Below, in pieces: positions 7,196 to 15,560 of a stretch of 64,000 nucleotides of DNA. How positions within the stretch are numbered: the stretch's first letter is position 1; each line of letters begins with the position of its first letter. The notes beneath the pieces were generated by a model. It was not told the DNA's origin, did no database searches, and saw only the letters and a program-made list of their open reading frames with translations. The translations under genes were made by a program, and so were the position numbers. Source of the DNA: Roseibacillus sp. (GTDB taxonomy: Bacteria; Verrucomicrobiota; Verrucomicrobiia; Verrucomicrobiales; Akkermansiaceae); assembly GCA_051251855.1 (NCBI GenBank), contig JBPOGI010000002.1, forward strand, positions 128,001-192,000. The letters run 5' to 3'.

Positions 7196-10100
7196 ATGAA
7201 AATAAAACCACTATCGCTGATTTGCGCTGCGGGAGGATTCCTCCCGTTTAGCCTATTAGCTCAATATGATGCCGACCTCCTTGGTTACTGGCAGTTCGAG
7301 GGAGACCTTACAGAAGATTCAGGAGCAGGTGTCCATGATGGAACGGCCTTCGGAACCGTCGCCTACGCGGCTGGACCAACGGCTGCCTTTGGACAATCTG
7401 TTTCATTTCCTGCCGCAGATGCAGCTGCCGTACCACCTGTCGATCCCAGTGGAGTGATCGTCGATAATACAAAAAGCAGTGAGCTCGGTTACGTCAATAC
7501 CTTCGATGATGGCATTTCTGATGCCCTTTCCATCTCCTTCTGGGCAAGTGGCCTTCCCGGCAACTGGTCTCCCTTTATTTCGAAAAGAGGAGAGGATAAT
7601 CTGGGCTACCAAGTCCGTAGGCATTCGACCACGCCCAACGCTACTTTTACCCTTAGGGGTACTGACGGGGAGGAAGATCCTCAGGGGTCAATTGACATCT
7701 CGACTGGGCAACCCGTTTGGACACACTACGCCGCTACTTGGAATGGTGTCACCGGCGAGCGCCGTCTTTATGTGAACGGAGTGGAAGATACCGCCGTTTC
7801 TCAGAGCGCAGATTTCATTTCCGGCACCGCTGGCCAAGGTCCTGATCTTGCCACAGACAATTGGCTCACCTTCGGTATGCGTCACCGAGAGCCCACCACT
7901 CCCACTGTTTTTCAAAACTTCTTTGCGGGAGATATGGATGACATTGCGATTTGGAATCGTGAAATCAGTAGTACTGAAGCCTTCCAACTTGCACAGGCTC
8001 CGCTTGACGACATTTTGCTCGAGACGGACGCGGACGGAGACGGCCTCTTCGCTTCTCAGGAGGCGGCCTTTGGTACCTCAGATGATCCAGCTGATGCCAA
8101 TTCCAACGATTTTGATGGCGATGGTGTGAGTGACTACGACGAATTCGTAAAAGGCGGCGATGGCGCCAATGACGATGACTTTGACATGGATGGTCTCACT
8201 AATCTTCAAGAGACTTCTGGCTCAGCCAACCCTTGGACTTCAGGCGTGAGTGGCGCAACACCAGGAGAGACTACTGACTGGTGTGTCGCGGACTCTGATG
8301 GCGATGGCATCGACGATGGTGAAGAGGTTGTTGCGGGTGTTGACGGTTTTGTGACCGATCCCAACAGCAGAGATACCGATGGCGATGGCTTTGCTGACGG
8401 TGCGGAGCTTGCGGAGGGTTCCGACCCCACAGATGCGAACTCTCTCCCTCCCATCACCACTGGACTGGTCGGCTATTGGGAATTTGAAAATGACCTCGTT
8501 GAAACATCAGGCGAGCATGCTCCAGGTACTCATGATGGTGCCACCACGGACGGATTCCCAGCGGAATTCGGCACAGGCCCCACTGTATTGGATGAAGGAG
8601 TCCTCGGCGATTTCGGAAGTTCCTTGAACACAGTCGCGGAGGGCACCAGCTATGGTGTCTACGTTCTTGGGTCCAATGCCCAAGAGACAGCAGGCTACGT
8701 CGATACTTTCGACGCTGGAATTGGCAACGAATTCACGGTGTCTCTCTGGGCGAAAGGCTGGCCTGGGGCTAACTGGGATCCGTTCATCTCCAAACGAGGA
8801 GAAACCAATCAAGGTTTTCAAATCCGGAGACGCGGAAATACCACTAATGCAACCTTCACCTTGCGCCAGACTTTAGGAGAGGATGACCCCAATGTCGGCA
8901 ACAACGCGGGAGGTGGCCAAACAGGCACAACCGGCGTTCCTGTCTGGAAGCACTACCTCGGGACTTGGAATGGCACTACGGGAGAAAGAAAGCTCTATGT
9001 GGATGGAGTTCTCTCCTTCACGATCACGGGTGACTTTGAGACTGGTGCTGGGGTGAGCGCTGCTACCAACTATTGGATGACCTTTGGAAGCCGCCACAAC
9101 AATGCCGACTTCACTCCTACTGAAGGGGACGTAAACGGTATTTTCAGTAACCTCTCATTCGAGGGTGAGCTCGATGACATCGCCTTCTGGCATCGCGAGT
9201 TGAAACCTACTGAGGCCGCTCAATTGAGCACCGCGCCTCTGTCCTTCATTCTCACTCAAACGGATGCGGATGCGGACGGACTCTTTGCTACTCAGGAAGC
9301 CGAGTTCGGCACCTCTGACAATGACTCTGATTCCGATGATGATGGCATTGATGATTTGGCAGAGTTCCTGAAGGGCAGTGACGGTGCCGTCGATGATGAC
9401 CCTGACATGGACGGCCTCCTGAACTCCCAAGAGAGTTCAGGTTCAGCGAACCCGTTTGTCGCTGGTGTCAATGTGGGGCTTCCTGGAACAGAGACCACCG
9501 ACTGGTGTGTTGCTGACTCGGATAACGACGGCATCAACGACGGCGATGAGGTTGGTTCTGTGAATGGCTTTGTGACCGACCCGAACAATGCAGACACTGA
9601 CGGTGACGGCTTCTCGGACGGCGCTGAGCTGGCTGCGACTCCTCCAACGGATCCACTGGATCCCCTGAGCAAAGGAACCGACTGGGAAAAAGGTCTCTGC
9701 GGTTACTGGCAGTTCGACGACGACCTCACTGATAGCGGGGTTCTCGGATTGGACGGTATCATGCAAGGTCTCGACACTACTGAAACCTATGCAACCGGTC
9801 AGTTTGGCAGCGCCATTGACTTCGACAAGCTCAACGAGCAGCGCGTGCAGATCACCGGAAATGAGAACCTCCTCGACGGCACTGGCAGCGACTTCACTGT
9901 TTCTGCTTGGGTTCAAATCGATGCCTTTGACCAGAACTGGCAGGCGATTATCTCCAAAGGAGACGAACCCACCGACTGGCGTCTAGCGAGATATAATAAT
10001 TCCAATGGACCTGCCTTTGTTGGCGGTAACGCAGATGTCCCGGGTAACGGGGATGGCGCGGCTAACACGGCAACTGCCAACCTACATCCCGTTAACGACG

Positions 10101-10645
10101 GCTCTTGGCATCACGTTGTTGGAGTGACGAAAAACGGTGTATCTTCCAGCCTTTGGGTGGATGGTATGTTAGTTGAGACTAAGTTAGGCGATACAACGGT
10201 TATTACTGATTCCGCGAATAGCGTTCTCATCGGAGGAAACCCAGATCATGCTGGAGATGGAGGCGGAGCCTACCGTTCTTGGGGTGGCAACATTGATGAT
10301 GTCGCAGTCTGGAAACGGGCTTTGACGGATAATGAAGTCACGACCCTCTTCTACGATGGTAATGACCTTCAGTATCTCATCGACAACGATGTCACTCCGA
10401 CCGATCCACCGATCCTCGCCGACGTCGCCATTGCTGATTGTTACTTCGATGGAGCCAACTTCAGCGTAGATGTGACCGGACTTGCTCCGACCGTCAACTA
10501 CGTGATGAAGCGGAGCTTGCTGTTGGATGGCACGGATTGGGCAGATGTGGGAACTCAGTTCACTGGGGGAGCCACTAACACCTTCGTTGATCCCGCTCCA
10601 GTAGCTAAGGCCTTCTACCAAATCTTCGAGGTAGCAGCGCCTTAA
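7196..10645 (+). CDS. Secreted protein with three LamG-like jellyroll domains and Asp-rich Ca-binding (TSP3-like) repeats
   Basis: Signal peptide; 3x GYW.F.....G.(I/L/M)DD.A.W.R; DSDGDG/DTDGDG repeats. Confidence 0.88.
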   Translation: MKIKPLSLICAAGGFLPFSLLAQYDADLLGYWQFEGDLTEDSGAGVHDGTAFGTVAYAAGPTAAFGQSVSFPAADAAAVPPVDPSGVIVDNTKSSELGYVNTFDDGISDALSISFWASGLPGNWSPFISKRGEDNLGYQVRRHSTTPNATFTLRGTDGEEDPQGSIDISTGQPVWTHYAATWNGVTGERRLYVNGVEDTAVSQSADFISGTAGQGPDLATDNWLTFGMRHREPTTPTVFQNFFAGDMDDIAIWNREISSTEAFQLAQAPLDDILLETDADGDGLFASQEAAFGTSDDPADANSNDFDGDGVSDYDEFVKGGDGANDDDFDMDGLTNLQETSGSANPWTSGVSGATPGETTDWCVADSDGDGIDDGEEVVAGVDGFVTDPNSRDTDGDGFADGAELAEGSDPTDANSLPPITTGLVGYWEFENDLVETSGEHAPGTHDGATTDGFPAEFGTGPTVLDEGVLGDFGSSLNTVAEGTSYGVYVLGSNAQETAGYVDTFDAGIGNEFTVSLWAKGWPGANWDPFISKRGETNQGFQIRRRGNTTNATFTLRQTLGEDDPNVGNNAGGGQTGTTGVPVWKHYLGTWNGTTGERKLYVDGVLSFTITGDFETGAGVSAATNYWMTFGSRHNNADFTPTEGDVNGIFSNLSFEGELDDIAFWHRELKPTEAAQLSTAPLSFILTQTDADADGLFATQEAEFGTSDNDSDSDDDGIDDLAEFLKGSDGAVDDDPDMDGLLNSQESSGSANPFVAGVNVGLPGTETTDWCVADSDNDGINDGDEVGSVNGFVTDPNNADTDGDGFSDGAELAATPPTDPLDPLSKGTDWEKGLCGYWQFDDDLTDSGVLGLDGIMQGLDTTETYATGQFGSAIDFDKLNEQRVQITGNENLLDGTGSDFTVSAWVQIDAFDQNWQAIISKGDEPTDWRLARYNNSNGPAFVGGNADVPGNGDGAANTATANLHPVNDGSWHHVVGVTKNGVSSSLWVDGMLVETKLGDTTVITDSANSVLIGGNPDHAGDGGGAYRSWGGNIDDVAVWKRALTDNEVTTLFYDGNDLQYLIDNDVTPTDPPILADVAIADCYFDGANFSVDVTGLAPTVNYVMKRSLLLDGTDWADVGTQFTGGATNTFVDPAPVAKAFYQIFEVAAP

Positions 10646-11286: not shown

Positions 11287-12726
11287 TTATTCTTCCGTAG
11301 GGACGAGGCGGATGACGGTGTTGGGTTTGTTGAGGACGACGTAGATGTTGCCGTCGTAGGGATTGGTGGCGACGTCGCGCACACGGCCGATGTCTTTGAG
11401 GATGATTTCGCGCTCGACCACGTTTTCGCCATCAAGCCGGATGCGAGTGATGGATTCGTGTCGGAGCCCACCAGCGAAGGCGTCGTTTTGCCAGTTGGGA
11501 AACTGGTCGCCGGAATAGAAGTCGAACCCGCAGGCGCCGATACTGGGGAGCCAGTAGTAGACGGGGTCGACGATTCCGTCGCGCTGGGTGACGGTGCCCT
11601 TCATGGGGGTTCCGCTGTAGTTCATCCCGTATGAGGTGTCGGACCATCCGTAGTTAAGGCCGGGGAGAATGATGTTGAGCTCATCTCCGCCGCGAGGGCC
11701 GTGCTCGGTGGACCAGACTTTGCCGGTGGCAGGGTGCAGGGCGAATCCTTGTGGGTTGCGATGGCCGATGGTGTAAATGCCTGGCAGAGCGTCGGGGCCG
11801 AAGTCGGGGTTATCGTCTGGAGTGCTGCCGTCGTCTTTGAGCCGGTAGGTTTTTCCGGTGGGTTCAGCGGGGTCTTGGGACTTCATTTTGCCGCCACGTT
11901 CGCCGACGGGGAAGAAAATGTCTCCATCCTTGAAGACGATGCGGGTGCCATAGTGGACGCCTGAAGAAGGGTAGAATTTCTTGTCGGCTTCCCAAATGAT
12001 TTCCTCGTCTACCCACTTGTTCTCCTTGATGCGGCCGCGCACGTAGCGGGTCATGGCATGGTTCTTTTTGCCTTTTTTGAAGCCGTCGGAATAGCCGAGG
12101 TAAATCCAGCCATTCTCTTCGTAATCTGGGTGAGGGGCGACTTCCATCATGCCGCCTTGTCCGTGATGGGTGACTTCGGGCGTGCCTTCGATGACGGTGA
12201 GTTTGCCGCCAGGGCTCATGAGGCGGATAGGACCGGGGCGCTCGGTGATGAGCTTGGAACCATCAGGGAGGAAGGCGATGGCCCAGGGGATATCGAGCTC
12301 GGCGTCTTCGTCGATGACCATTTCGATTTTGTAATCGTGGTGTTGAGTCTTCGATACTTCGCCGAGCTGCGGTTTGGGGAGGTCGATGCCTTCCGCGAGG
12401 GCACGGGCGTTCTTTTCCTGAATGAAGATGACGAGGCTGCGGATTTTTTCGGAGGAAAGAACGTTCTCGAAGGCGACCATGCCGAAGTCGGGATTGCCCT
12501 TGGCGATGTTCTTGGTGATGGCTTCGGTGGTGGAGCCGTGCTTCCACTCGTCATCGAGGAAGGAGGGACCAAGGCCGCCAGAAAGGTCTTCTGCGTGGCA
12601 GGAAGCGCAGAGCGTTTCATAGAGCTTCTCGACTTTGAGGTTATCAAGCTCAGAGGCGTCAAATTCCGCGAGGTCTTGAGCGGAGAGGGGTAGGGGTAAG
12701 AAAAGAGCGGCAAAAAGTGATTTCAC
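11287..12726 (-). CDS. PQQ-dependent sugar dehydrogenase (GSDH-like) with N-terminal cytochrome c
   Basis: Signal peptide; CASCH with distal Met; PWAIAFLPDG, GQGGMM, GHRNPQG, EHGPRGGDELN, GRVRDV. Confidence 0.9.
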   Translation of the reverse strand: MKSLFAALFLPLPLSAQDLAEFDASELDNLKVEKLYETLCASCHAEDLSGGLGPSFLDDEWKHGSTTEAITKNIAKGNPDFGMVAFENVLSSEKIRSLVIFIQEKNARALAEGIDLPKPQLGEVSKTQHHDYKIEMVIDEDAELDIPWAIAFLPDGSKLITERPGPIRLMSPGGKLTVIEGTPEVTHHGQGGMMEVAPHPDYEENGWIYLGYSDGFKKGKKNHAMTRYVRGRIKENKWVDEEIIWEADKKFYPSSGVHYGTRIVFKDGDIFFPVGERGGKMKSQDPAEPTGKTYRLKDDGSTPDDNPDFGPDALPGIYTIGHRNPQGFALHPATGKVWSTEHGPRGGDELNIILPGLNYGWSDTSYGMNYSGTPMKGTVTQRDGIVDPVYYWLPSIGACGFDFYSGDQFPNWQNDAFAGGLRHESITRIRLDGENVVEREIILKDIGRVRDVATNPYDGNIYVVLNKPNTVIRLVPTEE

Positions 12727-13144: not shown

Positions 13145-14164
13145 CTAGGGATTTTCAGTGATTTGTTGCTGAATGTAGGGCCCAAAGTCAGAGGGAAGCA
13201 AGATGGTGACTTTTTCGAGGCCATCGCCCATCGGTTCGGTCGTTCTATTTTCTTCCAAAGGGGTAAAGGGGAGCAGGTTGATGAGGTCCCCAGTTAGTAA
13301 TTGGTGGGTGATTCCAACGCGATCGGTGGCTTGTTGGTAGGAGTATTGGTAACCGTTGGTGACGGCCTGGAAATCTAACAAGGGCGTGGAGCTTGCTAAG
13401 TCTGGATGAGTTCCTGCGGCGAACTCGATTCCATTGGCCCAACCGTCGTCGTCGGCATCGTCTGCGAAGGCAACTTCGCTACTTGTGCTGAGATTTTCGG
13501 AGACCCAAGCGGCATAATCTGTCCCTGCGGGGGCGGGCTCTGCGACGTTAATGGCAGCCCGGATGAGATTGATGTTGGTGGTTCCCAAAGAGCCTGAAGA
13601 AAGTGGGACGTCGTTGTGTCGAGTCACCAGGTTGGAACCATCGGTTGCATCAACAACGACAATACGTCTCCGATTAGAGGAACCTAGAGAGCCTGGGGGG
13701 CTGCTGGCGGGAAAGCCGCTGAAGAGGCTGAAGCTTTCTCTTGGGAGGGTTCGATCAGCTGCAGCATCCAAGCCCCAGAGGGTGTAGTTATTATTAACGC
13801 TGAGGTTGATGATATTGCGGTCTTCTCCAACGGGTTCCAGCGAGAGGGCGATGTATTCGATCTCGATGCCATTGTCGTTTTTTCCTTGGTTAGCGCCGCG
13901 GCTGGAGCTCTCAAAGAAGTCGATGATGTTGTCTCCCAACTGAGAGACCATGGTTCCTCAGCTGGGTCACCAAGGGGTGAAGTAGACAATGACGGCCACT
14001 TTACCCTCGAGTTGAGAAAGGGAGGTGTCGGTGAGGTTTTGGAGGGTGTTTCCGCTGGTTGAGGAGCTGATGCTAAAGCTTTGGTCGGCGATGGAGTCGC
14101 CCGGATTGGGAACTGCGTTAGCAAAGGTAGTAGAGAGGAGGAGGCTGAGTAAAAGACGGTTCAT
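13145..14164 (-). CDS. Exported TlpA/redoxin-like protein with UxxU motif (putative double selenoprotein, 339 aa)
   Basis: ORFs 13967-14164 and 13145-13951 share one frame, joined by TGG TGA CCC AGC TGA GGA ACC ATG; this gives GKVAVIVYFTPW-U-PS-U at the CxxC position; N-terminal signal peptide. Confidence 0.8.
13935..13966 (-). promoter_or_regulatory. Putative SECIS-like recoding stem-loop
   Basis: CCCAGCUGAG pairs with CUCAGUUGGG (10 bp, one G-U), starting immediately 3' of the first UGA. Confidence 0.55.
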
Positions 14165-14169
14165 GGACT

Positions 14170-15330
14170 CTAGAATTGATGGGAAATCGCAAGGCGGCTG
14201 ACCAAGAAGTGGCGGTCTTGATAGAGACCTGAGAAGAATTCATTGTCGGCGCCGAGGGCTCCGTAGTTGCTATCGAAGAAGCCGAAGGAAAGTCGAACCG
14301 ATGTTTCGGATCCTTTCCAGGCAAGGCTGGCGCTGATTTCAGAGGAGTCGAGTTCGGGAGCAGCAGTATTGAATCCAGCGGTGGTGAACTCGCCGGAGTC
14401 GTGGTAAATACGAGCGCCTAAGCCAGCGTGCCAACCGGAGGCGATTTCGTAGTTGAGATTGAGGCCCCCGTAGTAGGCTTCGAAGTTGGGGTTTTCGTAA
14501 GTGGCTCCGACTTGGCCTCTCAAGGTGAGCTTGTCGGTCATGGCCCATGCCCAATTGTTCTGCAGTTGATAGCGGACTTGACGATCGGTGGTTCCGGTCG
14601 CGCGGAAGATGAGCTGAGTTTTGAGATTTTCGTTAAGCGCTTGTTCCCAATTGAGGGAGCCCGAATAGGTGATGAAATCGCTGCGAGTGGGAACGGGCTC
14701 GGGTCGAAAGGTGATGGGGTTGGGGACCCGGCTCCAAGCGGGAACGATTTCGTCTTGGCCATAACTAAAACTGGCGGTGAGGCGTCCCCCCCGACGATAG
14801 TCCCACACGACTCCTAAGTCGTAGGCCCAGCCATAAGGTTCGGCGGCATCGTAGCCCGCCACGCTCCCTGCTCCGCCAACAAATTGGTCGTAGTATTCTG
14901 CAATCCAAATGGATTGGTAGTCTGCGAAGCCATCATAATAGCGACCTCCTCCGCTGACGGAGAGGGTGTCGGTGGCTTGGTAGGCGAGAGTGAGGCTGGT
15001 GCCCCAGGTGTTTTCTTGTCTCTCGATGGGTAAGGTGGCTCCAACGGGATCGGTGTAGTTGATATATTGCTCGGTGTAGTATCCGTTGACGGTGAGTGTG
15101 ATGTCATCGACCTCGTGCTCAAAGGTTTGGGAAGTTCGGCCAACCCAGATGTCTTCGTTGTAGAGGGCTTCGTATTCGGAGTCGAAGCGCTGGGAGCCGC
15201 TAAAGAGGGAAGTGAGCCAAGATGAGGTTTCTTCGCTACTTTCTGTAGCTTCATCATAGACATCGTTGCTGAGGTCTCCTGCGAAAAGAGATACAGGAGC
15301 AAGGAGGAAAGGAAGGAGTGAAAATTTCAT
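14170..15330 (-). CDS. Outer-membrane beta-barrel protein (DUF3570-like by context)
   Basis: Signal peptide, alternating aromatic beta-strands, C-terminal RLAISHQF beta-signal. Confidence 0.75.
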   Translation of the reverse strand: MKFSLLPFLLAPVSLFAGDLSNDVYDEATESSEETSSWLTSLFSGSQRFDSEYEALYNEDIWVGRTSQTFEHEVDDITLTVNGYYTEQYINYTDPVGATLPIERQENTWGTSLTLAYQATDTLSVSGGGRYYDGFADYQSIWIAEYYDQFVGGAGSVAGYDAAEPYGWAYDLGVVWDYRRGGRLTASFSYGQDEIVPAWSRVPNPITFRPEPVPTRSDFITYSGSLNWEQALNENLKTQLIFRATGTTDRQVRYQLQNNWAWAMTDKLTLRGQVGATYENPNFEAYYGGLNLNYEIASGWHAGLGARIYHDSGEFTTAGFNTAAPELDSSEISASLAWKGSETSVRLSFGFFDSNYGALGADNEFFSGLYQDRHFLVSRLAISHQF

Positions 15331-15350
15331 GGTCGTGAGTCTCAGAAATT

Positions 15351-15560
15351 TTAATGGCAAGAGGCACAGCCGCCGCCTGCGCTCTGGCCATTGGCGGAGC
15401 GGCCCCGCTCTACGAGGCTGACGAGACCACAATCCATGAGATCGGCTCCCTTTTGATTGAAGCTCATCTCAGTTCGACTGAGGCCAATTTCATCAACGAT
15501 CGAGATCGATTGGCAGGAGTTGAAAACGAGCGGAATCGAGAGGAAGAACAGGGTTTTCAT
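15351..15560 (-). CDS. Small lipoprotein, DUF4266-like
   Basis: Lipobox-like FNSC, L...EMSF segment, Gly-rich tail GGGCASCH. Confidence 0.7.
   Translation of the reverse strand: MKTLFFLSIPLVFNSCQSISIVDEIGLSRTEMSFNQKGADLMDCGLVSLVERGRSANGQSAGGGCASCH

Follow-up and report, generated by a model that had tools for sequence, protein, structure and literature searches.

What is the function of three closely packed genes that encode, in order, a small lipoprotein ending in a cysteine pair, a predicted outer-membrane beta-barrel and an exported redoxin whose reading frame is interrupted by two TGA codons? The question is raised by a locus on the minus strand of a 64,000-nucleotide stretch (hereafter the window) of the genome of Roseibacillus sp., a member of the Akkermansiaceae in the Verrucomicrobiota (contig JBPOGI010000002.1, positions 128,001 to 192,000). 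We have found that the three genes form a real unit, a flavin-free and partly selenium-based relative of a known but unexplained kind of gene cluster, and that this unit is apparently unpublished. The three adjacent, co-oriented genes, the intergenic gaps of 20 and 5 nt, the CASCH tail and the UxxU motif of the redoxin had all been described in a first-pass annotation of the window and are confirmed on the sequence. The features of the locus, all on the minus strand, are as follows.

15351..15560, minus strand: small lipoprotein of 69 aa, with a mature part of 54 aa from lipobox Cys16, a Gly-rich linker, a C-terminal CxxCH and a DUF4266-like layout
15354..15368, minus strand: lipoprotein tail C65-A-S-C68-H69; in relatives CxxC-R/Q/K/N, UxxC, CU or UxU
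14170..15330, minus strand: predicted 16-stranded outer-membrane beta-barrel of 386 aa, a family of its own, with no Cys and a C-terminal Phe386
13145..14164, minus strand: exported TlpA/ResA-like redoxin with UxxU motif and C-terminal module, 339 aa with TGA read through
13967..13969, minus strand: first in-frame TGA (U66), aligned to Cys of CxxC relatives
13958..13960, minus strand: second in-frame TGA (U69), from the sequence and the alignment of relatives
13931..13948, minus strand: hairpin of the selenocysteine insertion sequence (SECIS) type, 7-bp stem and AGUU loop, likely for both UGAs
13935..13966, minus strand: competing 11-bp hairpin that would bury the second UGA, strong in the window copy only
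13145..13522, minus strand: redoxin C-terminal module, a candidate surface-sorting signal, with DxDxDG repeat and beta-rich domain

The lipoprotein ends in GGGCASCH and the redoxin motif reads W-U-P-S-U. Under translation table 11 the redoxin gene is split into open reading frames (ORFs) of 65 and 268 aa. Export signals, as previously noted, are present on all three proteins as judged by eye, and the lipobox Cys is invariant in 28/28 aligned peptides. A scan of the locus for promoters and terminators gave signals no better than chance. The genome to which the window belongs comprises 4.96 Mb and is 95% complete, and the sequencing runs that contain the full stretch are seawater metagenomes from one study, which may be its source; no RNA run was among those listed.

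The three genes are conserved as a unit

A scan of a genome collection returned at least 38 barrel loci, all titled Verrucomicrobiota among the matches listed; a range of Verrucomicrobiota only rests on these titles and on searches confined to that phylum. The hosts are mostly uncultured, and the distribution is patchy, with the barrel found in 36 of 251 genomes of the family and 4 of 401 genomes of the phylum. After duplicates had been merged, 59 loci including that of the window were kept (56 distinct by a 40-nt key and three near-identical copies from other genomes). The peptide gene lies upstream of the barrel in 57 of these (52 recognised by pattern and five by eye), the remaining two being at contig ends. 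A redoxin gene lies downstream in 52 (UxxU 21, UxxC 12, CxxC 19, with six motif labels assigned by hand); the other seven comprise two contig edges, two truncated barrel matches and three loci that apparently lack a redoxin. Synteny across the phylum, proposed earlier as a check, is therefore borne out, the three-gene order being kept above chance. Flanking genes are shared only by subsets of loci with a housekeeping-type context (the first 39 loci were clustered), and so we take the three genes to be the unit. At one locus (L033, 2207-3600) peptide and barrel are kept and another gene stands in the place of the redoxin; at another (L038, 5001-6400) the barrel gene ends after ~140 residues and unrelated sequence follows.

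Selenocysteine in the redoxin

Both UGA codons of the redoxin very likely encode selenocysteine (Sec), as judged from several lines of sequence evidence. The genome carries selA, selB, selD and one tRNA-Sec, the sole match above the tRNA-Sec cut-off. The two in-frame UGAs align with the catalytic Cys residues of homologues, and TGA occurs in 33 of the 52 redoxins, solely at these two positions. Elsewhere in the genome TGA is an ordinary stop, terminating 222 of 1013 long ORFs; a reading of UGA as Trp was rejected, since TGA is the normal stop here and aligns with Cys.

The bacterial SECIS model requires a G within the first two loop positions, 16-37 nt after the UGA (as set out in PMC13188914). 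The loop of the window hairpin starts 26 nt past the first UGA and 17 nt past the second, so that its G-containing AGUU loop fits the model and both distances lie within the range. By a strict rule a stem of at least 4 bp with a G loop is found at the same position in 16/21 Sec-type redoxin genes as against 0/14 Cys-type genes, and in the five Sec-type genes that fail the rule the stems are short or bulged. The summed stem is 144 bp, compared with a mean of 35.7 and a maximum of 68 in 2000 synonymous shuffles; for the gene in the window alone the shuffle gives p = 0.028. Two near-identical UxxC redoxins (L016 and L018) have the stem, whilst in their CxxC counterpart (L026) it is broken. UxxC genes keep the hairpin in the identical place, so one hairpin likely serves both UGAs, as PMC13582414 proposes of a single downstream SECIS in UxxU hydrogenases. 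Two overlapping SECIS elements, one per UGA, were considered and rejected: the competing 11-bp hairpin has p = 0.002 in the window copy, but over 16 UxxU genes this first hairpin shows no significant selection (summed p = 0.054), and the constant place of the SECIS-type hairpin in UxxC genes also speaks against a pair.

The co-occurrence with sel genes that had been put forward as a check was found to be close. selA is present in 34/34 genomes with a UGA-bearing copy (21/21 and 13/13) and in 3/24 Cys-only genomes (2/17 and 1/7), where one selA is partial at a contig end and the genomes are related and many of them incomplete. Most CxxC redoxins belong to genomes in which no selA was detected. 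Two (L026 and L114) occur in selA-positive genomes, nested among Sec-type relatives, an apparent reversion to Cys. The locus had been called a selenium-dependent variant. The recoding to Sec is upheld by the sel genes, the hairpin and the selA co-occurrence; the dependence is not, as 19 of the 52 downstream redoxins are CxxC. Selenium is, on sequence grounds, a lineage overlay on the catalytic residues and not a requirement.

Selenium use is lineage-wide, because at least 12 more candidate selenoproteins are encoded in the genome. They are SelD and 11 of 14 hand-picked candidates that match redox families, from a scan that was non-exhaustive. TGA stands at the catalytic position in SelD, a formate-dehydrogenase-type molybdopterin protein, SelW/Rdx, MsrA, a peroxiredoxin and seven thioredoxin-like UxxC proteins. 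Most have signal-like N-termini and one lies directly behind selA. Their positions are C7:93121 (SelD), C1:1403243, C9:35000, C6:461829, C8:303832, C1:1584111, C11:42440, C11:99365, C10:234380, C9:31937, C1:1812084 and C1:1177446. An exported two-domain HMA-like protein with two in-frame TGAs (L137:141-737; C6:711917 and 712145) is a candidate double selenoprotein in which each TGA is followed by its own G-loop hairpin; the HMA match is weak. Two further possible selenoprotein families are an FG-GAP/ASPIC-UnbV protein whose gene contains a TGA in frame and a G-loop hairpin of 7 bp (L140, C6:417091) and an unclassified exported UxxC protein (L139, C10:209784).

The lipopeptide and its tail

Thirty mature peptides with Cys tails, selected by pattern (five were trimmed by eye to the lipobox Cys), align gap-free at 54 residues down to 19% identity. 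The distance from the lipobox Cys to the first tail Cys is 49 residues in 36/39 Cys tails, and in 12/13 Sec tails the corresponding distance is 49-51 residues. The tails of the 57 peptides are of the types CxxCH (24), other CxxC (20), UxxC (8), UxU (3) and CU (2). The terminal His is absent from 33/57, and two sister sequences (L024 and L028) swap H for R. Replacement of a catalytic Cys by Sec is an established pattern. With Sec in the place of Cys in 13/57 tails, the tail probably functions as a redox centre and not as a haem site; haem is disfavoured because the His is dispensable.

In all 13 Sec-tailed genes a hairpin folds just behind the stop codon, with differing stems around AGUU, GGUC or CGUGU loops. 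A stem of at least 6 bp is found there by a strict rule in 11/13 Sec tails as against 1/39 Cys tails. A SECIS behind the stop codon has a precedent in SaoC, as described in bioRxiv 10.1101/2022.07.06.499078. Three loci of the genus to which the window genome belongs (L118, L119 and L120, from genomes G375, G393 and G418) have U-T-U tails with a co-varying GGUC-loop hairpin behind the stop. In a tree of 56 barrel sequences, from which three were omitted as too short (L038, L039, L123), the CU tails form one clade and the UxxC and UxU tails belong, together with a Cys tail, to a second clade of weak support; this suggests that tail selenocysteine was gained at least twice.

The small gene had been assigned to DUF4266. 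The DUF4266 (PF14086) hidden Markov model (HMM) gave no match above cut-off for the window peptide and matched 3 of 28 relatives weakly (best E 0.0021), and the C-terminal CxC of that family is replaced here by CxxCH. HHalign scored the peptide against DUF4266 at a probability of 95.6% with the signal peptide included, and the mature peptide at 5.8% (local) and 13.3% (global), with reversed controls of 0.33% and 0.04%. The assignment is not sustained; by layout and length, and below thresholds, the peptide is plausibly at best a remote DUF4266 relative.

The barrel and the flavin question

An AlphaFold2 model of the barrel has 16 strands (mean predicted local distance difference test score, pLDDT, 86; predicted template modelling score, pTM, 0.81), with long loops at one end, short turns at the opposite end and the C-terminal Phe386. 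The even-stranded antiparallel model, the sidedness of the loops and the terminal aromatic residue support the earlier suggestion that the middle gene encodes an outer-membrane beta-barrel. Fold searches returned generic barrels, the best being 16-stranded export channels at 6-14% identity: PgaA (Z 19.9, root-mean-square deviation (rmsd) 3.7, 252 residues aligned), then PelB, CdiB and BcsC. A profile search gave 236 representatives at E up to 0.001. No named Pfam or NCBIfam family passed beyond weak generic barrel matches, and a search of the Atlas found hypothetical or generic barrel clusters only, with a weak likeness to one in which 32% of members carry SlipAM. By its sequence the barrel is a family of its own.

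The identification of the barrel as DUF3570 is not supported by HMM. The DUF3570 (PF12094) HMM had no match in the barrel, in 33 aligned relatives or in the genome; the same model does match 22 of 301 genomes of the phylum. HHalign against DUF3570 gave a probability of 5.6% (reversed control 11%), and a deeper profile 19.3% (control 0.45%). Loop 2 of the window barrel contains VGAT, in one HHalign register the same loop as that of the DUF3570 flavinylation motif. GA[S/T] occurs in this loop in 4/59 barrel loci as against 18/18 DUF3570 proteins, and the strict [S/T]GA[S/T] in 1/59 loci and 1/159 representatives as against 11/18. Flavinylation at VGAT was rejected on the ground that the motif is not conserved. 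apbE is adjacent to 0/39 barrel loci, some of them short-flanked, and to 22/22 DUF3570 loci. Its absence beside the window locus had been pointed out before and extends to the whole 64 kb; three apbE genes lie elsewhere in the genome, and 37 of 38 relatives have apbE somewhere. One genome (G251; L047 and L124) holds both a classical DUF3570/ApbE/DUF4266 cluster and the flavin-free unit, so the two are not mutually exclusive.

An N-terminal extension is present in 52 of 183 barrel proteins, and 50 of these bear a WCxxC redoxin motif. From the barrel topology this fused redoxin would be in the periplasm. No Cys, His or Met is found among barrel positions conserved at 80% or more.

The peptide is predicted to line the barrel lumen

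Prediction of barrel and peptide together gave an interaction score (ipSAE) of 0.82, as against 0.01 for the best of three controls. This mark is reached by 116/157 solved complexes and 2/215 mismatched pairs, counts that are roughly valid with the alignments used. The runs share at least 69% of contacts, with a partner pLDDT of at least 59. Residues 12-41 of the mature peptide contact strands 8-16 and 1-2, the more polar face of the barrel accounting for 50 of the 56 strand contacts. Contact pairs set against strand direction place residues 19-25 near the periplasmic end and residues 29-36 near the outer end, and the invariant barrel residue Y309 contacts the conserved E51 of the peptide. No peptide contacts are made on the strand 3-7 side, so that a channel remains in the model.

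The peptide is thus predicted to line the lumen with its tail toward the outside, and its last 13 residues would emerge at the outer mouth. That the peptide plugs the barrel, as had been suggested, finds support in this complex prediction. No similar complex was present among the fold-search matches; no sequence search for one was made.

The redoxin fold and its C-terminal module

The redoxin model (residues 15-212) matches 2ls5 (Z 14.4, rmsd 3.7, 152 residues aligned), DsbE 3gl3 (Z 13.9) and ResA (Z 13.1). A thioredoxin fold, an N-terminal hairpin and a motif at the CxxC position are all seen in the model, as expected of a TlpA/ResA/DsbE-type protein. None of the Pfam and NCBIfam models scanned, AhpC-TSA and Redoxin included, scores the sequence above its cut-off.

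Residues 215-339 match 81 ORFs of the genome, and 55 of the matches end within 16 aa of the C-terminus. The proteins that bear this module are mostly large, with signal-like N-termini by eye. It matches no named family of Pfam or NCBIfam, save for a weak hit across the DxDxDG repeat. The probable surface-sorting domain of the first-pass annotation can be kept as a candidate, the module being shared at the C-termini of many large proteins. In relatives the redoxins carry Ig-like stalks in 7 of 11 scanned (one below cut-off), a choice-of-anchor D domain in one, and other lineage-specific terminal modules with 75 matches in an Opitutaceae genome and 8 in a Puniceicoccaceae genome. Three differing C-terminal modules (window 13145-13522, L031:7151-7618 and L034:2600-2854) are each common to many large proteins of their own genome, and look like undescribed sorting signals of Verrucomicrobiota.

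A possible thiol/selenol relay

Starting from the genes, motifs, hairpins and co-occurrence observed and from the folds and plug predicted, we put forward the following locations, partners, direction and substrate. We think it probable, if only just, that the unit is a flavin- and haem-free thiol/selenol relay by which electrons of the periplasm reach the cell surface. Anchored by its lipid on the periplasmic side, the peptide would climb the lumen along strands 8-16 and 1-2, so that the Gly-rich linker and the CxxC tail protrude freely from the outer mouth. The tail would be reduced by a TlpA-type redoxin of the periplasm, which is fused to the barrel N-terminus in ~50 relatives and would act in trans for the window copy; this redoxin would be recharged by DsbD, which the genome encodes. 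The reduced tail would swing through the open part of the lumen and exchange with the UxxU redoxin, displayed on the surface via its C-terminal module. That redoxin might in turn keep surface proteins reduced or correctly disulfide-bonded, or discharge oxidants, with selenium as a lineage-wide upgrade of the catalytic residues.

Several points weigh against such a relay. The main objection is chemical: diselenides are more difficult to reduce than disulfides, so that flow from the CxxC tail to UxxU could be uphill. The electrons might run in the opposite direction, or the redoxin might serve as an isomerase. In the 39 loci clustered the unit has neither dsbD nor any other shared partner next to it, and the window copy of the unit encodes no periplasmic redoxin. 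At least three loci (L033, L125 and L126) have flanking sequence yet no downstream redoxin. The complex model gives the tail (mature residues 42-54) no confident position, and its reach to either side is our extrapolation. The sorting role of the C-terminal module is a candidate role suggested by the sharing pattern, and without the DxDxDG repeat (the last 76 residues) the module profile matches just five ORFs. The related genomes are not independent, so the counts given above overstate significance.

Alternative explanations

The dithiol and selenol motifs and the terminal His, where present, are suited to soft metals. The unit could accordingly capture a soft metal or metalloid (Cu, Hg, As, Se) at the surface and import or detoxify it, with the tail and UxxU as binding sites and the barrel acting as a gated channel, for which the opening on the strand 3-7 side of the model would offer a path; 25 DUF3570 clusters contain a VIT1 iron transporter according to PMC8238504. 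We regard this as unlikely. The barrel is without Cys, His or Met among its conserved positions, His is missing from most tails, and the 39 clustered loci share no transporter or metal regulator save housekeeping neighbours and two small three-locus transporter clusters; the metal-uptake module mentioned in the first-pass annotation accordingly finds little support. Similarly improbable in our estimation is an assembly or quality-control platform on which module-bearing secreted proteins are oxidatively folded or released, the redoxin being an isomerase and no net electrons being exported. It would explain why dozens of large proteins bear the terminal module of the redoxin, and both the export-channel folds nearest to the barrel and the weak likeness to the SlipAM-containing cluster point the same way, but at 6-14% identity those fold matches reflect strand number only, the patchy distribution is unlike that of a general secretion factor and the lumen is predicted to be partly filled.

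The remaining alternatives concern cofactors and the reality of the redoxin gene. That CxxCH is a haem c site and the unit a minimal porin-cytochrome conduit is very unlikely: the motif is present in the window copy and in 23 other tails and cytochrome c assembly genes are in the genome, but CxxCH is not conserved, sister sequences exchange H for R, and the motif is broken in all 13 Sec tails. A diverged DUF3570 system flavinylated in trans by an unlinked ApbE would account for the VGAT of loop 2 and for the apbE genes found in the window genome and in nearly all relatives, and is yet more doubtful given the rarity of the motif and of adjacent apbE when set against true DUF3570 loci. Hardly credible is the possibility that the TGAs are true stops and the redoxin gene a pseudogene or split gene. 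Table 11 does split the gene into two ORFs, the second of which has an ATG of its own (13951), but this internal Met is not conserved, and the confinement of TGA to two catalytic positions, the selected hairpin and the selA co-occurrence all speak for a functional gene.

Relation to known systems

Clusters of ApbE, DUF3570 (PF12094), DUF4266 (PF14086) and thioredoxin-like genes, often with DsbD, have been described (Meheust et al. 2021, PMC8238504), and DUF4266, DUF3570 and TlpA are named as neighbours also in bioRxiv 10.1101/2023.06.07.544157. The unit resembles these clusters in its components: a small exported peptide whose C-terminus bears a pair of Cys, a partner of ~400 aa and a TlpA-type redoxin. 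The mature peptides are of nearly equal length (53 aa in DUF4266 and 54 aa here), and three relatives have the CxC spacing of DUF4266 in the form of UxU. The unit differs in lacking apbE, dsbD and a conserved flavinylation motif, in a barrel that is not detectably DUF3570 and in a tail that is CxxC and not CxC. It differs also in the surface-type module of its redoxin, the frequent fusion of redoxin and barrel, and Sec in both redoxin and tail. The word 'barrel' is absent from PMC8238504, and no plug is proposed there.

Lipoproteins within barrels have precedents whose sequences, in RcsF and LptDE, are unrelated to those of the unit. In LptDE a lipoprotein is likewise held inside a beta-barrel lumen. 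In RcsF-OMP (outer-membrane protein) complexes the lipoprotein also lies within the lumen and spans the outer membrane; there, according to PMC4942254, the lipidated end is outside and the role is stress signalling, whereas here the C-terminal Cys/Sec tail is predicted to be outside. The redoxin, too, has counterparts. SelL is a similar thioredoxin-fold selenoprotein with two Sec three codons apart. The Prx-like thiol:disulfide oxidoreductase selenoproteins of UxxC/UxxU type (PF00578 entry, PMC13188914) share the thioredoxin fold and this spacing; the window redoxin, unlike them, is exported, carries a surface-type module and is tied to a barrel and a lipopeptide. The SaoC Cys-Sec-COOH lipoproteins (Haft and Gwadz, bioRxiv 10.1101/2022.07.06.499078) resemble the Sec-tailed peptides in their C-terminal Sec and a SECIS behind the stop, but are proteins of 158 aa from an ATP-binding cassette (ABC) transport operon, mostly in bacteria without an outer membrane.

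No description of the three-gene unit was found in the open-access literature, supplements excluded; the supplement of PMC8238504 might include clusters of this kind. Neither the Sec-tailed lipopeptides nor the exported UxxU redoxins were found in parts one and two (of three) of the section of PMC13188914 on 119 families.

Thiol maintenance outside the Gram-negative outer membrane is poorly known, and the DUF4266/DUF3570 clusters are without a mechanism. The unit offers a minimal testable model of peptide plug, barrel and redoxin, and its natural all-cysteine versions lend themselves to expression in a laboratory host. It brings with it a family of lipopeptides with Sec tails and of exported UxxU redoxins, which are truncated by table-11 gene calling, and points to an unusually selenoprotein-rich group of Verrucomicrobiota. 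In its widest form, which we rate as a serious possibility somewhat short of probable, our proposal is that trans-outer-membrane electron conduits include a third kind, in which a lipopeptide threaded through its own barrel acts as a swinging arm without any cofactor and hands electrons on, by Cys/Sec exchange, from periplasmic redoxins to a surface diselenide redoxin, both ends of which marine Akkermansiaceae would have upgraded with selenium several times, up to a U-x-U tail with SECIS behind the stop. If this is true, the same plug mechanism would account for the DUF4266/DUF3570 systems too.

Neighbouring genes

Two neighbours of the unit in the window are not common to related loci. One encodes an exported laminin-G/TSP3-repeat protein of 1149 aa (7196-10645, plus strand) and the other a cytochrome c fused with a glucose/sorbosone dehydrogenase domain (11287-12726, minus strand). 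Elsewhere in the same genome ten tRNA genes lie within 1.5 kb (C10:114076-115599), an array typical of mobile elements.

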